A stretch of 64,000 bases of DNA from an uncultured Candidatus Saccharibacteria bacterium (GTDB lineage Bacteria; Patescibacteriota; Minisyncoccia; Phycocordibacterales; UBA2100). The position numbers and the translations under genes were made by a program. Below the pieces are notes generated by a model. It had not been told where the DNA came from. It worked only from the letters and a program-made list of their open reading frames with translations, and did no database searches. The stretch's first letter is position 1. Each line of letters begins with the position of its first letter. Shown one piece after another: positions 7,565 through 15,433 of this stretch. Location: positions 13,637 to 77,636 of the forward strand of contig CAZYLZ010000002.1 in assembly GCA_964648335.1 (NCBI GenBank), written 5' to 3'.

Positions 7565-7617
7565 GAATTCATGAAGAAGAGAAGGGCCGACCTGCCGTAC
7601 TGTTGTGCGGTGGTAGG

Positions 7618-9234
7618 ATGAAATGTATTAGAAGGCAGAACGTCATCATCTTTATGCATACATTTACACGTCGTTTGCGAACGTACGGTGCCGCAATTGC
7701 ACTCACTTCAGCGTTGGTCCTCCCGCTCTCTGCCTCGGCCGTGACGATAGACGAGCTCAAGGCCCAAGTTGCAGCTCTCATGGCTCGCATATCAGAGATG
7801 CAAACACAGACTCGTGTGGCAGATCCTTCCTCGAGCCAATCCTCACGCATGATGCCTGATACTTCGCGGAGCGTGTGCTCGTACCTTAACCGCAACCTTT
7901 CTCTCGGCAGCCGTGGGGATGATGTTCGTAGCCTGCAAGAGTTTTTGCAATCAAATGGCTACCTTTCGGCACAAGCCACTGGCTATTTTGGGTCTCTTAC
8001 CCGGGCGGCACTTAAAACCTGGCAGGGGACGCAGGGACTGAGTGCCATCGGAAGCATGGGACCACTCACTCGTGCCAAGCTTGGCGTATGGTGTAAGAAC
8101 AAGGTCGATCTGGTGGCGACGCCTTCGTCTGGCGCAGCACCGCTTTCGGTCACGTTCTCGACGATGCTGAGCGGATTCAGGATTCCATCGGTGACCTACA
8201 TTCTCGACTACGGAGACGGAGTTCAGGAAAAGCCCGCAGACTGCCTCGCTCCGGCCGACGCATGCATAGAGCCAGGAAAGAATACGCATACCTACTCGGG
8301 CACGGGGGTATATACCGCCACCTTGAGCATGATTACGAACCCATGTGCGGGAATGGAGCTGACCTGCAAGGCCGCTATCCACACCGAGGTCGTGGCGCAG
8401 ACGGTCATCAAAGTCGGAACTGACGGACCGGTCGCATGCACCATGGACTACAATCCGGTGTGCGCAGCTAAGCAGGTGACCTGCATCCGCGCGCCGTGCA
8501 ATCCAATCCCGACCACCTACAGCAACAAATGCGCCATGACGGCAGACAATGCAGCATATCTGTACCAGGGTGCGTGCAAGGATCCGTCGTACGATCCGGC
8601 AAGCGATGCACAGTGCAAATCGTGGTTCGATGGATGCAATACCTGCTCGCGCTCATCTCCGGGTGGCATGGCGGCTTGTACACTCATGTACTGCGAGAAT
8701 CCGCAGACGCGCTATTGCAAAGCGACCTTCACCGATAATCAACCACCGACCGTCTCGTCGTTCTCGGGACCTACCGTTCTTGCTCAAAACCAGAGTGGTA
8801 CGTGGACTATCAGCGCGAGCGACCCCGAGAACGGGCAGCTTACGTATCAGGTGTGGTGGGGTGATGAAAATGTACCTACGCCCGCAAACGCACCTTCTGC
8901 GTTGTCAGCGCGCGAATTTACGCAGACGACCACGTTCTCGCATTCGTACGCAACGCCCGGAACCTACACGGTCTCGATGGTGGTTCGCGACATCGTAGGT
9001 CAAGAAACAAAGACGACCACGACAGTACAGGTGAGTGGTGCTACGGCGTGCGCCACGATTTACCAACCGGTCTGCGCACGTCCTTCGGGCTGCCTCAACA
9101 CCTGCGCTCCCGGTATGTACTGCACCATGCAGTGTATGCTCGCGACCCCGGTTACCTATGGAAACTCATGCGAGATGAATCGCGTCAGTGCCACCTACCT
9201 GCATGACGGCCAGTGCACGTCGGGCGACTACTAG
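7618..9234 (+). CDS. Paralog of the preceding secreted PG-binding/PKD/Kazal-like protein
   Basis: Same architecture: signal peptide; VTIDELKAQVAALMARISEMQ coiled coil; GDDVRSLQEFLQSNGYLSAQATGYFGSLTRAALKTWQ; YILDYGDG (PKD-like); two Kazal-like cores (YNPVCAAK...TTYSNKCAM...LYQGAC and YQPVCARP...VTYGNSCEM...LHDGQC). ATG at 7618 follows a GGTGGTAGG SD-like element; the ORF track's TTG at 7603 is an alternative start. Confidence 0.6.
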   Translation: MKCIRRQNVIIFMHTFTRRLRTYGAAIALTSALVLPLSASAVTIDELKAQVAALMARISEMQTQTRVADPSSSQSSRMMPDTSRSVCSYLNRNLSLGSRGDDVRSLQEFLQSNGYLSAQATGYFGSLTRAALKTWQGTQGLSAIGSMGPLTRAKLGVWCKNKVDLVATPSSGAAPLSVTFSTMLSGFRIPSVTYILDYGDGVQEKPADCLAPADACIEPGKNTHTYSGTGVYTATLSMITNPCAGMELTCKAAIHTEVVAQTVIKVGTDGPVACTMDYNPVCAAKQVTCIRAPCNPIPTTYSNKCAMTADNAAYLYQGACKDPSYDPASDAQCKSWFDGCNTCSRSSPGGMAACTLMYCENPQTRYCKATFTDNQPPTVSSFSGPTVLAQNQSGTWTISASDPENGQLTYQVWWGDENVPTPANAPSALSAREFTQTTTFSHSYATPGTYTVSMVVRDIVGQETKTTTTVQVSGATACATIYQPVCARPSGCLNTCAPGMYCTMQCMLATPVTYGNSCEMNRVSATYLHDGQCTSGDY

Positions 9235-12662: not shown

Positions 12663-13484
12663 ATGAATCTCATCACCCTTTTCAGACGGGCCTTTTGGGA
12701 CTCGTCCGAGTTCGCTACCTATGCGCCGTCCGAACTTTCACGACTTGAATCGCTTAAGGAAGAGACAAGAAAAAAGTTCGTCTTCGCATGGCAAGAGCGA
12801 TATTCGAAAGAAAGCATCGTGAGACAGATGCTGTTTGTGGAGCGACATGACCTGATTGAGCTGAAGTTGCGCCAAATCTCCCAATCCATACGGGAGATCG
12901 AAAGCGGTGTAGGAGACCGCAGTAGGATCGGCGCGCTCAAAGACGCACGGCTCAAGTGGCAAAACCAACACGCTGATCTGATTGCACGGCGATCGGAAAC
13001 TGCGACCGCTCCCGCGAAGATTTTCGATAGAATCTTCACGGTTCCTCGGGTCGTCGCGTGCGAGATGGATGGTACCTGCCTCGTTGTCTATACCGACACG
13101 CTGTACTCGTGCGTGGTAGACCAGCGAAAGCGACGTTGGTACAAGATCGGCCGCTTCCGTATTGCAATAGATCTCGTAGGAAGGCCGAACACGCCTCATA
13201 ACGATGAACGGATTGGCGTCCAGTGGCACAATCTCGATCGAAACCAGTTCTCGTTCAGTATGTGTGCGCCGCAAATCCCGCGTAGCGGGACGGTGAGCTG
13301 CCTCGGTACGACATATTCGCAGATAATGCGAGATGCAGTCGTCTCGGGCGAAACGAATACGCTCGTCGCTGCGGCCATCCGATTCGCGGAATGCCCGTCG
13401 AAATCCAGGAACATGGCCAACTGGCACCGCGTCTCGGAAAACAAAGTACCGAAGTGGTATCTTAATGCCCCACTTGAGTGGTAG
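12663..13484 (+). CDS. Hypothetical protein: N-terminal coiled coil plus a C-terminal domain with a UBC/E2-like H-x-N...C motif (candidate E2-like partner of the downstream E1)
   Basis: Good SD (AAGGAG) before the ATG. Residues 180-205, ERIGVQWHNLDRNQFSFSMCAPQIP, resemble the HPNIDSNGxICLDIL active-site loop of UBC folds (H189, N190, C201), and predicted beta-strands precede it. Own terminator hairpin follows at 13490-13515. Confidence 0.35.
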   Translation: MNLITLFRRAFWDSSEFATYAPSELSRLESLKEETRKKFVFAWQERYSKESIVRQMLFVERHDLIELKLRQISQSIREIESGVGDRSRIGALKDARLKWQNQHADLIARRSETATAPAKIFDRIFTVPRVVACEMDGTCLVVYTDTLYSCVVDQRKRRWYKIGRFRIAIDLVGRPNTPHNDERIGVQWHNLDRNQFSFSMCAPQIPRSGTVSCLGTTYSQIMRDAVVSGETNTLVAAAIRFAECPSKSRNMANWHRVSENKVPKWYLNAPLEW

Positions 13485-13570
13485 TGCAAGCACCGCGCGC
13501 TGCGCGGTGCTTTTTGTTGCCATATGCCCGTTTTGCGATACTCTGCAGACAGAGGAAATGGAGGTGATAC

Positions 13571-14299
13571 ATGACCATACTACTATCGTCCGATCTGCAG
13601 ATTACTGAGTTCGATCCGAGGCACACACGCGGACGTGCTGTCTGGATTCTTGGCTGCGGAACGACTGGCTCTCGTATTGGCGAGGCGCTGGCACGAATGG
13701 GTATCGACCCGGCCCAGATCCATCTGGTCGACGACGATCATGTCGAGTCTGTGAATATCAAGCCACAGCGATACACCCAAGATGACATCGGCCGGCTCAA
13801 GGTAGATGCTTTGGCCGATCATATCAATAAAATCGCACGCTCGCGGCCGCATACCCATGCGAAGCGGTTCAACGGCTCAGAGAAGCTCTCGGGCTATGTG
13901 TTCTTGTGTCTAGACACGCTCGAGGATCGCAGTGCGATCTGGCACCGTGCCATCAAAGACAATGACGATGTCATCATGATGTTCGATGTCGGTATCGGTA
14001 ACTTCAATGGCAAGTACTTCGGCGTGCGACCATGCAATCCTATCCATATCGATCGGTACGAGGCGCATCGTGCAGGAGACTTGGCTGCACAGAAAGAGAT
14101 CCAGGCGATATTGGCGGCACACAACATGTGTGCAACCAAAGCGAACAGGGGTCCGACAGCTGACATCATGTGCGGCATTGTCGAAACTCAGTTCATCAAG
14201 TGGATCGAGGTCGAGAATGGCAATACCGAACCCTTCGAGAATCTGATCGCGTTCTCGATGCGGGGGCAGGCGATGCCGGCCAACGAGATCTGGGGATAG
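13571..14299 (+). CDS. E1-like adenylyltransferase of the ThiF/MoeB/HesA family (242 aa, minimal Rossmann domain)
   Basis: VWILGCGTTGSRIG (GxGxxG), LVDDDHVESVNIKPQRY (matches the DxDxVexSNLnRQ motif), RLKVDAL, YVFLCLDTLEDR (matches DCTDNxxxR), VIMMFDVGIGNFNGKYF. SD GGAGGTG precedes the ATG. Confidence 0.75.
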   Translation: MTILLSSDLQITEFDPRHTRGRAVWILGCGTTGSRIGEALARMGIDPAQIHLVDDDHVESVNIKPQRYTQDDIGRLKVDALADHINKIARSRPHTHAKRFNGSEKLSGYVFLCLDTLEDRSAIWHRAIKDNDDVIMMFDVGIGNFNGKYFGVRPCNPIHIDRYEAHRAGDLAAQKEIQAILAAHNMCATKANRGPTADIMCGIVETQFIKWIEVENGNTEPFENLIAFSMRGQAMPANEIWG

Positions 14300-14410
14300 A
14301 ACCTCGCACCGGGCTTGACTGCCCGGTGCTTTTCTTTACACTCTCGTAAGGCAGGTACTCGTCGCCTGCATAATGACGTTCGAACTGAACAGACGAGAAG
14401 AGGAGAGAAC

Positions 14411-14548
14411 CATGTCGATGAATGCATCGGTGAACACGACTGGCGCCACGCCCGTCTCGTTCGATGTCGTTCGCCAAGCACTCGGCCGCGGCGGGCACGC
14501 TCCGTCGACCCAAGACCGGGCCCGGTACGGACTCGCTGTCGAGGGCTA
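14411..14548 (+). CDS. Small ORF (45 aa) ending in Gly, bracketed by two terminators; candidate peptide or UBL-like partner of the E1, or non-coding
   Basis: SD AGAGGAGAGAA seven nt upstream of the ATG; product MSMNASVNTTGATPVSFDVVRQALGRGGHAPSTQDRARYGLAVEG; terminator hairpins at 14306-14337 and 14561-14591. Not in the six-frame track because it is under 60 aa. Confidence 0.25.
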
Positions 14549-14655
14549 ATCCTCGCTACCACGCTCGATCGGCGGCACGCATGTGCCGCCGGTTTCTTTT
14601 ACATAGGCTCAAACCGCGATAGAATGGCTCTTATTTCGTTACCAGAACACATTCT

Positions 14656-15060
14656 ATGATCAAGGGATTCCAGCAATTTATTCTCCGCGGCAACGTTGTC
14701 GATTTGGCAGTCGGTGTGGTGATTGGAGGAGCCTTCGGTACCGTCGTAACTGCCCTCGTAAAAGACCTGCTTACTCCCTTGGTCGGAGCTATCGTGCAGG
14801 CCCCCGATTTTTCGAGTCTCGCCTTTACTATCAACGGCAGCCAATTCATGTACGGCGACTTCATTAACGCGGTGATTGCGTTTCTCCTCGTTGCTTTCTC
14901 TATCTACTTCTTCGTCGTAACTCCGATGAACGCCATGATGGCCCGCATGAAGAAGGCAGATGTTCCGGCTGACCCGACCACTAAGAAGTGTGGCGAGTGC
15001 CGAAGTGAGATCCCAATGGATGCCAAGCGCTGCGCGCACTGCACGCAGGTTCTTGCGTAA
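14656..15060 (+). CDS. mscL: Large-conductance mechanosensitive channel MscL with C-terminal CxxC-x11-CxxC tail
   Basis: RGNVVDLAVGVVIGGAFGTVVTALVKDLLTP is the MscL signature; C-terminus KKCGECRSEIPMDAKRCAHCTQVLA looks like a zinc ribbon. Confidence 0.85.
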   Translation: MIKGFQQFILRGNVVDLAVGVVIGGAFGTVVTALVKDLLTPLVGAIVQAPDFSSLAFTINGSQFMYGDFINAVIAFLLVAFSIYFFVVTPMNAMMARMKKADVPADPTTKKCGECRSEIPMDAKRCAHCTQVLA

Positions 15061-15067
15061 TAGAGGT

Positions 15068-15433
15068 ATGGCAGATGATGTAAAAGCGGTAGTCGAAGAA
15101 AAGAAAGAAGACGCCCCTCCGGCGCCTCCTAAGACGGCAGTACAAGGATTTCTCGATTTCATACGAGAGCGCGGTGTCGTCGGGCTCGCTATTGGATTCG
15201 TGGTCGGTGGCGCGGTTACCAAGACGGTAACTTCGCTCGTCAACGACGTACTCAATCCGCTCATGGGTCTCGTTCTCGGGTCTCGGCTCAACCTGAGCGA
15301 CATGTCCATCGGTGTCGTAAAGGTCGGCAGCTTCGTGACGAATCTCATCGATCTTGTGATGGTCACTGCCGTGATCTACTTCTTGTTCTACAAAGCGCTT
15401 CGTCTCGACAAGCTCGAGAAGCCGAAGACCTAA
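15068..15433 (+). CDS. mscL: Second MscL paralog
   Basis: GFLDFIRERGVVGLAIGFVVGGAVTKTVTSLVNDVLNPLMG; ATG at 15068 after an acidic/Lys-rich N-terminal tail; strong 17-bp hairpin downstream. Confidence 0.8.
   Translation: MADDVKAVVEEKKEDAPPAPPKTAVQGFLDFIRERGVVGLAIGFVVGGAVTKTVTSLVNDVLNPLMGLVLGSRLNLSDMSIGVVKVGSFVTNLIDLVMVTAVIYFLFYKALRLDKLEKPKT

Follow-up and report, generated by a model that had tools for sequence, protein, structure and literature searches.

Organization of the Locus

The window analyzed here is a whole 64-kb stretch of DNA from an uncultured Candidatus Saccharibacteria bacterium (contig CAZYLZ010000002.1, positions 13,637 to 77,636). Three neighboring genes on its + strand encode a 273-residue protein (herein X), a 242-residue adenylyltransferase (herein E1), and a 45-residue peptide; together they are referred to as the triad (Table 1). 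A preliminary description, made from the sequence alone, proposed them as a possible module for ubiquitin-like conjugation or peptide activation, and this proposal is supported by the active-site motif of X, the family of E1, and the conservation of the triad.

A consensus scan places a terminator-like hairpin behind each of the three genes; the region holds 8 terminator-like sites, against 1.9 expected. The small open reading frame (ORF) has the Shine-Dalgarno sequence, the flanking hairpins, and the ...LAVEG-stop ending originally ascribed to it. Scans for Rfam families and tRNAs were negative for the region and for the window as a whole, which means that the small ORF corresponds to no known RNA element.

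Table 1. Features of the triad in the window and C-terminal tails of the peptide at seven loci
Feature	Position	Strand	Remark
Gene X, 273-residue E2-like protein (coiled-coil hairpin and UBC-like domain)	12663-13484	+	ORF list
N-terminal antiparallel helical hairpin/coiled coil of X, residues 22-113	12726-13001	+	
C-terminal UBC/E2-like domain of X, residues about 117-273	13011-13481	+	
E2-type signature of X, A202-P-Q-I-P-R-S-G-T-V-S-C213-L-G215	13266-13307	+	Cys213 codon 13299-13301
Terminator-like hairpin 3' of gene X	13488-13512	+	11-bp stem, then T-run
E1/ThiF-family adenylyltransferase, 242 residues, without extra domains	13571-14299	+	Pfam ThiF
ATP-binding G-loop of E1, G28-C-G30-T-T-G33	13652-13669	+	GxGxxG invariant in 13 aligned E1s
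Cys187 codon of E1	14129-14131	+	Sole invariant Cys in 13 aligned E1s
Terminator-like hairpin 3' of E1	14306-14329	+	9-bp stem with 8 GC pairs, then TTTTCTTT
Promoter-like TTGACT-16-TACACT upstream of small ORF, overlapping E1 terminator	14315-14342	+	Consensus scan
Shine-Dalgarno sequence of small ORF, GAGGAGAG	14400-14407	+	Sequence
45-residue peptide ORF, MSMNASVNTTGATPVSFDVVRQALGRGGHAPSTQDRARYGLAVEG	14412-14549	+	Terminal Gly codon 14544-14546, stop 14547-14549
Terminator-like hairpin 3' of small ORF	14567-14594	+	12-bp stem, then T-run
Peptide tail, window			...DRARYGLAVEG
Peptide tail, L013			...RPERVAQYRAG
Peptide tail, L016			...ADDPRTKQYIDG
Peptide tail, L036			...ENDPRMRAYLDG
Peptide tail, L044			...QNDPRRRQAHKG
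Peptide tail, L021			...GDDPRRIEYVDG
Peptide tail, L025			...ADDPRTRKYVDG

X Very Probably Has a UBC-Type Domain

X matches no family in Pfam, NCBIfam, PADLOC, or PHROG. It appears as an orphan in a k-mer-indexed homology search, and when that tool was used for a profile search it returned four proteins only. The family came to light only when 1.84 billion representatives were searched exhaustively with phmmer, which gave 116 relatives at E ≤ 1e-3. These are of two kinds: short forms of ~250 residues that resemble X, and long forms of 430 through 770 residues in which the homology is C-terminal. At E ≤ 0.1, Pfam matches none of 61 family members and none of the long forms, and the families Prok-E2_A to Prok-E2_E are thus unmatched. 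With its short forms in bacteria of the candidate phyla radiation (CPR) and its long forms in phages, this E2-like family appears to be undescribed.

Alignment of the 61 sequences shows a variable N-terminal coiled coil and a conserved C-terminal domain. T144, L147, W159, C213, G215, R240, E243, P263, and Y266 are invariant; P128, R129, G163, W188, N190, G209, V262, and W265 are nearly so, and C244 is kept in 53 sequences. Around C213 the active-site signature of X is [AP]P[QN]IxxxGxVxCLG, the family consensus is PP[NQ]IxxxGxVxCxG, and the long forms have APH[VI]xxxGxACLGN, in parallel with the E2 signature HPN[IV]xxxGx[IV]CL[DS] (the UBC9 counterpart is HPNVYPSGTVCLS). The stretch in X aligns to HPNINSNGS-ICLD of UBE2D2, with C213 on C85 and the preceding loop on HPN. 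The His of HPN is absent from X, as it is from several prokaryotic E2 families (PMC1779556). A catalytic loop had previously been proposed at H189-x-N...C201 ('SMCAPQ'); neither H189 nor C201 is conserved, in contrast to W188 and N190, and the true signature of E2 type is located just a few residues further downstream, with C213 as its Cys.

An AlphaFold2 model of full-length X has a predicted local distance difference test score (pLDDT) of 84.6, and a model of the domain alone (residues 115 through 273) reaches a pLDDT of 90.5 and a predicted template modeling score of 0.87. The N terminus, earlier described as a coiled coil, is modeled as a helical hairpin (residues 22 through 113) followed by an α/β domain. 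This C-terminal domain is predicted to adopt a UBC-type α/β fold, with an N-terminal helix, an antiparallel sheet, and C-terminal helices. Foldseek returned nothing significant against the Protein Data Bank (PDB), its top match being an E2 (E = 0.56); a sequence-profile search of the PDB gave coiled-coil proteins only.

Profile-profile comparison with an alignment of four canonical E2s gave E = 0.001 (probability 21%, 68 columns) for the short forms and E = 0.0017 (probability 15%, 113 columns) for the long forms. The two alignments agree in register and place Cys213 on the catalytic Cys of the E2s; in the long forms the motif AIQFVESVNxxD lines up with the helix-2/PNPDDP region. Each of these lines is moderate by itself; because they combine with the genomic context described below, we regard it as very probable that X is a UBC-fold homolog with a catalytic-type Cys.

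E1 Is a Minimal ThiF-Family Enzyme

The core E1/ThiF motifs first noted in the ORF at 13571-14299 hold up on comparison. The protein matches Pfam ThiF (PF00899) over residues 23 through 222 at 62.7 bits (cutoff 28.1; E = 3.9e-17), and in an alignment of 13 relatives (7 from CPR bacteria and 6 from mobile genetic elements [MGEs] or phages) GxGxxG, DxD, K-V, and D...R are invariant. The adenylation-site residues kept throughout are D54/D56 (DxD), K77-V-D79, and D115...R120 (LDxxxxR). These motifs identify the ORF as a member of the E1/ThiF/MoeB adenylyltransferase superfamily. In linear position, Cys187 corresponds to the catalytic Cys of the crossover loop. The alignment contains no CxxC zinc pairs, and E1 has no extra N-terminal domain, its G-loop lying already at residue 28.

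E1 falls far under every cutoff of the NCBIfam equivalogs ThiF, MoeB, SAMP E1, TcdA, PRTRC_ThiF, and cap2_3 (for cap2_3, 43 bits against 320; for PRTRC_ThiF, TIGR03736, 42.7 bits against 144.75). The "E1-E2" models of PADLOC match it over ~70 residues of the nucleotide-binding part only. Its nearest solved structures are the E1 domain of Cap2, a ThiF-type protein, MccB, and PaaA, in each case over the Rossmann part only.

A Conserved Small Gene Ends in Gly

The peptide was compared across the seven independent loci, including the window, whose DNA extends past E1; they represent one lineage and are a small, phylogenetically non-independent sample. At 7/7 loci an ORF of 45 through 55 codons, homologous to that of the window, lies behind E1 and ends in Gly-stop. 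Thus both the X-E1-peptide arrangement and the Gly-terminated product, at first seen in the window, recur in every related locus long enough to show them. GGAG is found 6 to 10 nt upstream of the ATG at the six related loci as well, and the conserved D-P-R codons show synonymous changes among loci. The small ORF is, by these comparisons, a real conserved gene with a conserved terminal Gly.

The peptides are of low complexity. Their N-terminal halves are variable, with a high content of Ala, Gly, Thr, and Pro; it is the tail that is conserved, and it ends in ...EG, ...AG, ...DG, or ...KG (Table 1). Bulky hydrophobic residues make up 12 to 24% of the peptides, which have 0 or 1 Lys, compared with 29 to 33% in β-grasp ubiquitin-like proteins (UBLs) of 66 through 77 residues; this low content makes a β-grasp fold implausible. 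No family in Pfam, NCBIfam, or PADLOC matches the 45-residue peptide. A 400-residue protein that shares a 90%-identity cluster with it (P0131/P0132) is unrelated and looks like an artifact of database clustering.

By eye, a hairpin between E1 and the peptide gene, overlapping promoter-like −35/−10 hexamers, is also present in L013, L021, and L025. Given the promoter-like site in the E1 terminator, a 5' untranslated region of ~70 to 90 nt would precede the Shine-Dalgarno sequence of the peptide gene. Across the seven loci, the E1 loop behind Cys187 (window 14132-14170) covaries with the type of peptide tail: CK[TS]EFPxP pairs with ...Y[VIL]DG tails and C...GPTADI with ...LAVEG and ...QYRAG tails, a pattern that at n = 7 loci is inseparable from common descent.

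The Triad Lies in a Fixed Housekeeping Block

One gene block, (TIM-PGK)-HIT-RecJ-DUF975-RNaseH-(X-E1-peptide)-ComEC-SOD, is common to the seven loci. In the window, the triad is preceded by genes for HIT, RecJ, a DUF975-like membrane protein, and RNase H and followed by two MscL paralogs, ComEC, SOD, a metallo-β-lactamase-fold protein, and L28, with S12/S7/EF-G further on; these genes have housekeeping functions in a bacterium with a small genome. In the window MscL is downstream of the triad; in L013, L035, L043, and L044 it is upstream of X. Since it shifts around the triad and never splits it, the triad behaves as a unit.

At every locus with enough DNA (10 CPR, 3 viral), the X relative has a ThiF gene downstream of it, one to three genes away. 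Those records that bear a name are assigned to Candidatus Paceibacterota. Among the window, L036, and L044, identity is 30 to 34% for X and 35 to 40% for E1, compared with 40 to 62% for RecJ, RNase H, and SOD. Shared synteny together with an identity below that of the flanking genes indicates that the module is vertically inherited yet fast-evolving; judged from these loci, it is conserved and lies outside defense islands. A hand-made degenerate DNA pattern gave three true and three chance matches in GTDB genomes and two true matches, on short contigs, in JGI metagenomes.

The absence of a JAB peptidase, cyclase, or effector, remarked on from the outset, stands: the triad neighborhood contains no JAB/JAMM motif, cyclase, or effector, and no plausible gene of the 64-kb window contains a JAMM motif. 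No protease, ParB, sulfur, or cofactor genes accompany the triad in the window or at the CPR loci. The literature searches made here found no papers that link CPR, Patescibacteria, or Parcubacteria to E1/E2 systems.

Two other features of the flanking DNA may be recorded. The MscL paralogs of the window are in tandem (14656-15433), and the first (14656-15060) has a C-terminal CGEC...CAHC zinc-ribbon-like tail. At 7603-9234 the window encodes a 543-residue protein with PG_binding_1 and PKD domains and several Cys-rich repeats ("Y.PVCA...C...Y.N.C"), which are possibly Kazal-like inhibitor modules.

Long Forms of X Occur in Phage-Type Cassettes

X is homologous to E2-like proteins that occur in E2-JAB-E1-UBL cassettes: a hidden Markov model (HMM) of the long forms matches it at E = 1.7e-29, with APHVxxxGkACLGn aligned to APQIPRSGTVSCLGT. 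Three long forms are found on IMG/VR contigs of 180 to 207 kb (L040, L041, and L042) in the order long E2-like protein, JAB peptidase, E1. In L040 and L041 a UBL of 69 through 86 residues follows directly behind E1, which is the exact place of the CPR peptide; no obvious UBL lies behind E1 in L042. The JAB peptidases of the three contigs carry HSHx7SxxD, two of them with weak Prok-JAB matches, and the UBL of L040 has a weak ThiS match. The UBLs end in ...RVRKVVGN-stop and in ...KIKGN plus an extension. Two further long forms (P0050 and P0056), and likewise P0014 and P0017, are on contigs too short for gene context. Searching cultured-phage genomes with a long form and IMG/VR with the X of the window returned nothing.

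At 5320-8289 of L040 (the 207-kb contig), two long E2-like paralogs stand in tandem ahead of JAB, E1, and UBL. The catalytic Cys is replaced in the second (APHVELSGYPVAGM), and its sequence suggests that the pair comprises an E2 and an inactive UEV-like partner.

The E1 relatives that are closest in the k-mer search are also found on phage- or MGE-like contigs, in the order small UBL-like ORF, 432- through 538-residue protein, JAB peptidase, E1; in two of three, the small ORF has GG followed by two to four extra residues. A ThiS/MoaD sulfur-carrier setting had been named as the alternative context for such relatives, and the nearest ones lie in JAB cassettes instead. The 432- through 538-residue proteins upstream of JAB (L007, L009, and L010) could not be confirmed as members of the X family, as neither HMM matches them; in hhalign, L009 gave only a weak match, in active-site register (E = 0.007), and L007 a match in the coiled coil. 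On two MGE-like contigs (L007, 6982-8148; L009, 7003-8229) the UBL-?-JAB-E1 cassette is directly followed by a gene for a reverse transcriptase (RVT_1), and L007 encodes in addition, further downstream, an integrase and a PemK toxin.

Discussion

By analogy, the module resembles the bacterial E1/E2 conjugation systems, namely Bil, Cap2 of the cyclic oligonucleotide-based antiphage signaling system (CBASS), Bub, and the classes of operon set out by Iyer et al. 2006 (PMC1779556), yet it departs from each family in the features specific to it. Bil (BilABCD) and the UBL-E2-JAB-E1 operons ("6d/6e"-type in the Iyer/Burroughs/Aravind classes) have, like the triad, separate E2-like and E1-like proteins with Cys and a modifier ending in Gly; the long-form cassettes, which contain JAB, E1, and (on two of the three contigs) a β-grasp UBL, extend this likeness. 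The triad differs in having neither a JAB peptidase or deubiquitinase (DUB), in the window neighborhood or at any CPR locus, nor a β-grasp UBL. Its candidate modifier is instead a low-complexity peptide of 45 through 55 residues translated with Gly last; X has an N-terminal coiled coil and matches no Pfam Prok-E2 family, and the genes lie in a CPR housekeeping block. Canonical E2s (UBE2D2, UBC9) share with X the UBC-type α/β fold and a parallel active-site signature, but identity is about 10%, and X lacks the HPN His, has five to six strands rather than four, and carries an extra residue before the Cys; it also has the family-specific motif R240-[YF]-x-E243-C244 and a WPxVxxxEVPxWY C terminus.

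Bub (BubB/BubCD) uses Ser oxyesters and peptidase-E1 fusions (PMC11601596), whereas the invariant residues of the triad are Cys and it has no peptidase. Cap2 is an E2-E1 fusion that conjugates a CD-NTase, a reaction reversed by Cap3; in the triad E2 and E1 are separate, and there is no cyclase, effector, or peptidase. ThiF/MoeB with ThiS/MoaD, and the ThiF-like enzymes MccB, PaaA, GrcB, and EnfB of RiPPs (peptides made on the ribosome and modified after translation), have in common with E1 the ThiF domain and, as proposed for E1, the activation of a C-terminal carboxylate, but the triad is without a β-grasp carrier, sulfur or cofactor genes, or an RRE domain, and the partner of its E1 is E2-like. 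PRTRC cassettes differ too: the triad has neither ParB nor PRTRC genes in its neighborhood. The candidate modifier resembles Pup in being short and probably intrinsically disordered and would, like it, be recognized via its C-terminal tail. Pup ends in GGQ or GGE, and the glutamine-synthetase-like enzyme PafA attaches it by way of the side chain of Glu, whereas the enzymes of the triad are of E1/E2 type and the terminal residue is Gly; no PafA/Dop-like ligase gene adjoins the triad in the window or at the CPR loci.

We consider the triad to be probably a minimal ubiquitin-type relay of a Paceibacterota-like CPR bacterium, running from E1 to E2 and acting on the peptide. The peptide would be made with a free C-terminal Gly, without JAB or DUB processing; E1 would bind ATP and adenylate the Gly carboxylate; Cys187, at the crossover-loop position, may then carry the peptide as a thioester, and the peptide would be passed to Cys213 of X. 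The coiled-coil hairpin of X may serve for target selection or for oligomerization or dimerization of the enzyme; a protein Lys or another group would be the acceptor. As Gly is already the last translated residue, no JAB processing would be needed, which would explain the absence of JAB from the CPR module. Whether the relay ends in protein conjugation is nearly an even question, on which we lean slightly toward doubt. As a whole, we tentatively propose a vertically inherited housekeeping E1-E2 cascade of CPR bacteria (Paceibacterota) that may conjugate a disordered, non-β-grasp peptide of 45 through 55 residues via its encoded Gly and that would have arisen when UBL-E2-JAB-E1 cassettes of phages or MGEs lost JAB and had their UBL replaced.

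The same chemistry might instead serve antiviral defense, as in Bil, Bub, and CBASS-Cap2, with the peptide placed on phage or host proteins upon infection. Bacterial E1/E2 conjugation pathways characterized so far all belong to antiphage immunity (PMC11601596, PMC10557695), the relatives are phage- or MGE-borne, and X and E1 diverge faster than the flanking RecJ, SOD, and RNase H. The PADLOC E1-E2 models do match the Rossmann region of E1, but only within a generic nucleotide-binding fold. The triad occupies a fixed, vertically inherited position in every genome examined rather than a variable island, a synteny that speaks against a typical defense island, and no effector, DUB, or sensor gene accompanies it; we judge a defensive role unlikely. 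A different account accepts X and E1 as a genuine E2/E1 pair but denies that the peptide is their substrate: the modifier would be a β-grasp protein encoded elsewhere, or the pair would act on something else, and the peptide would be an unrelated or regulatory small protein kept adjacent by descent. Its hairpin terminators and separate promoter-like site set the peptide gene apart transcriptionally, all triad loci are syntenic relatives, and we know of no precedent for a disordered peptide of such size as an E1 substrate. Against this stand the position of the peptide, which is that of the UBL in phage-type cassettes, the restriction of strong conservation to the C-terminal tail ending in Gly, the failure of the relocating MscL ever to split the triad, and the absence of a ThiS- or Ub-like ORF near any of the seven loci, which together make this account unlikely.

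The peptide might also be activated without being conjugated to protein, ending as a sulfur-carrier thiocarboxylate or as a RiPP-like product, modified or cyclized, with X as a Cys-based carrier or scaffold. ThiF-like enzymes are known to adenylate the C-terminal carboxylates of ThiS/MoaD and of the RiPP precursors MccA, GrcA, and EnfA (PMC12250964), and the solved relatives nearest to E1 include MccB and PaaA. However, MccB, PaaA, GrcB, and EnfB all have an N-terminal RRE/peptide-clamp domain of ~90 to 100 residues (PMC12250964), for which E1, with its G-loop at residue 28, has no room. The neighborhood has no transporter, immunity, protease, sulfurtransferase, thiazole-synthase, or MoaE genes, E1 scores far under the ThiF and MoeB equivalog cutoffs, and the partner X has the fold and motif of an E2; we hold such activation to be quite unlikely. 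That the genes are unrelated neighbors and the likeness of X to E2s a chance similarity of fold would agree with the Foldseek result and with the lack of a match to any curated family. It is very unlikely in view of the ThiF gene that accompanies X relatives in CPR and viral DNA alike, the invariant Cys inside an E2-type motif, and the co-occurrence of the long forms with JAB and UBL genes.

To our knowledge, the enzymes of the known E1/E2 pathways act on β-grasp proteins in every case. If the proposed cascade is correct, it would be the first ubiquitin-type E1/E2 system with a modifier that lacks the ubiquitin fold, a "Pup-like tag on ubiquitin-like machinery," and the E1/E2 machinery would be separable from that fold. 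X would found a new E2-like family absent from Pfam, NCBIfam, PADLOC, and PHROGs. With three small soluble proteins and no processing protease, the module would be directly testable in vitro and could become a compact tool for peptide ligation. Regulation in CPR bacteria is almost unknown, and the triad would add a protein-tagging system to these ultra-small, largely uncultured organisms.

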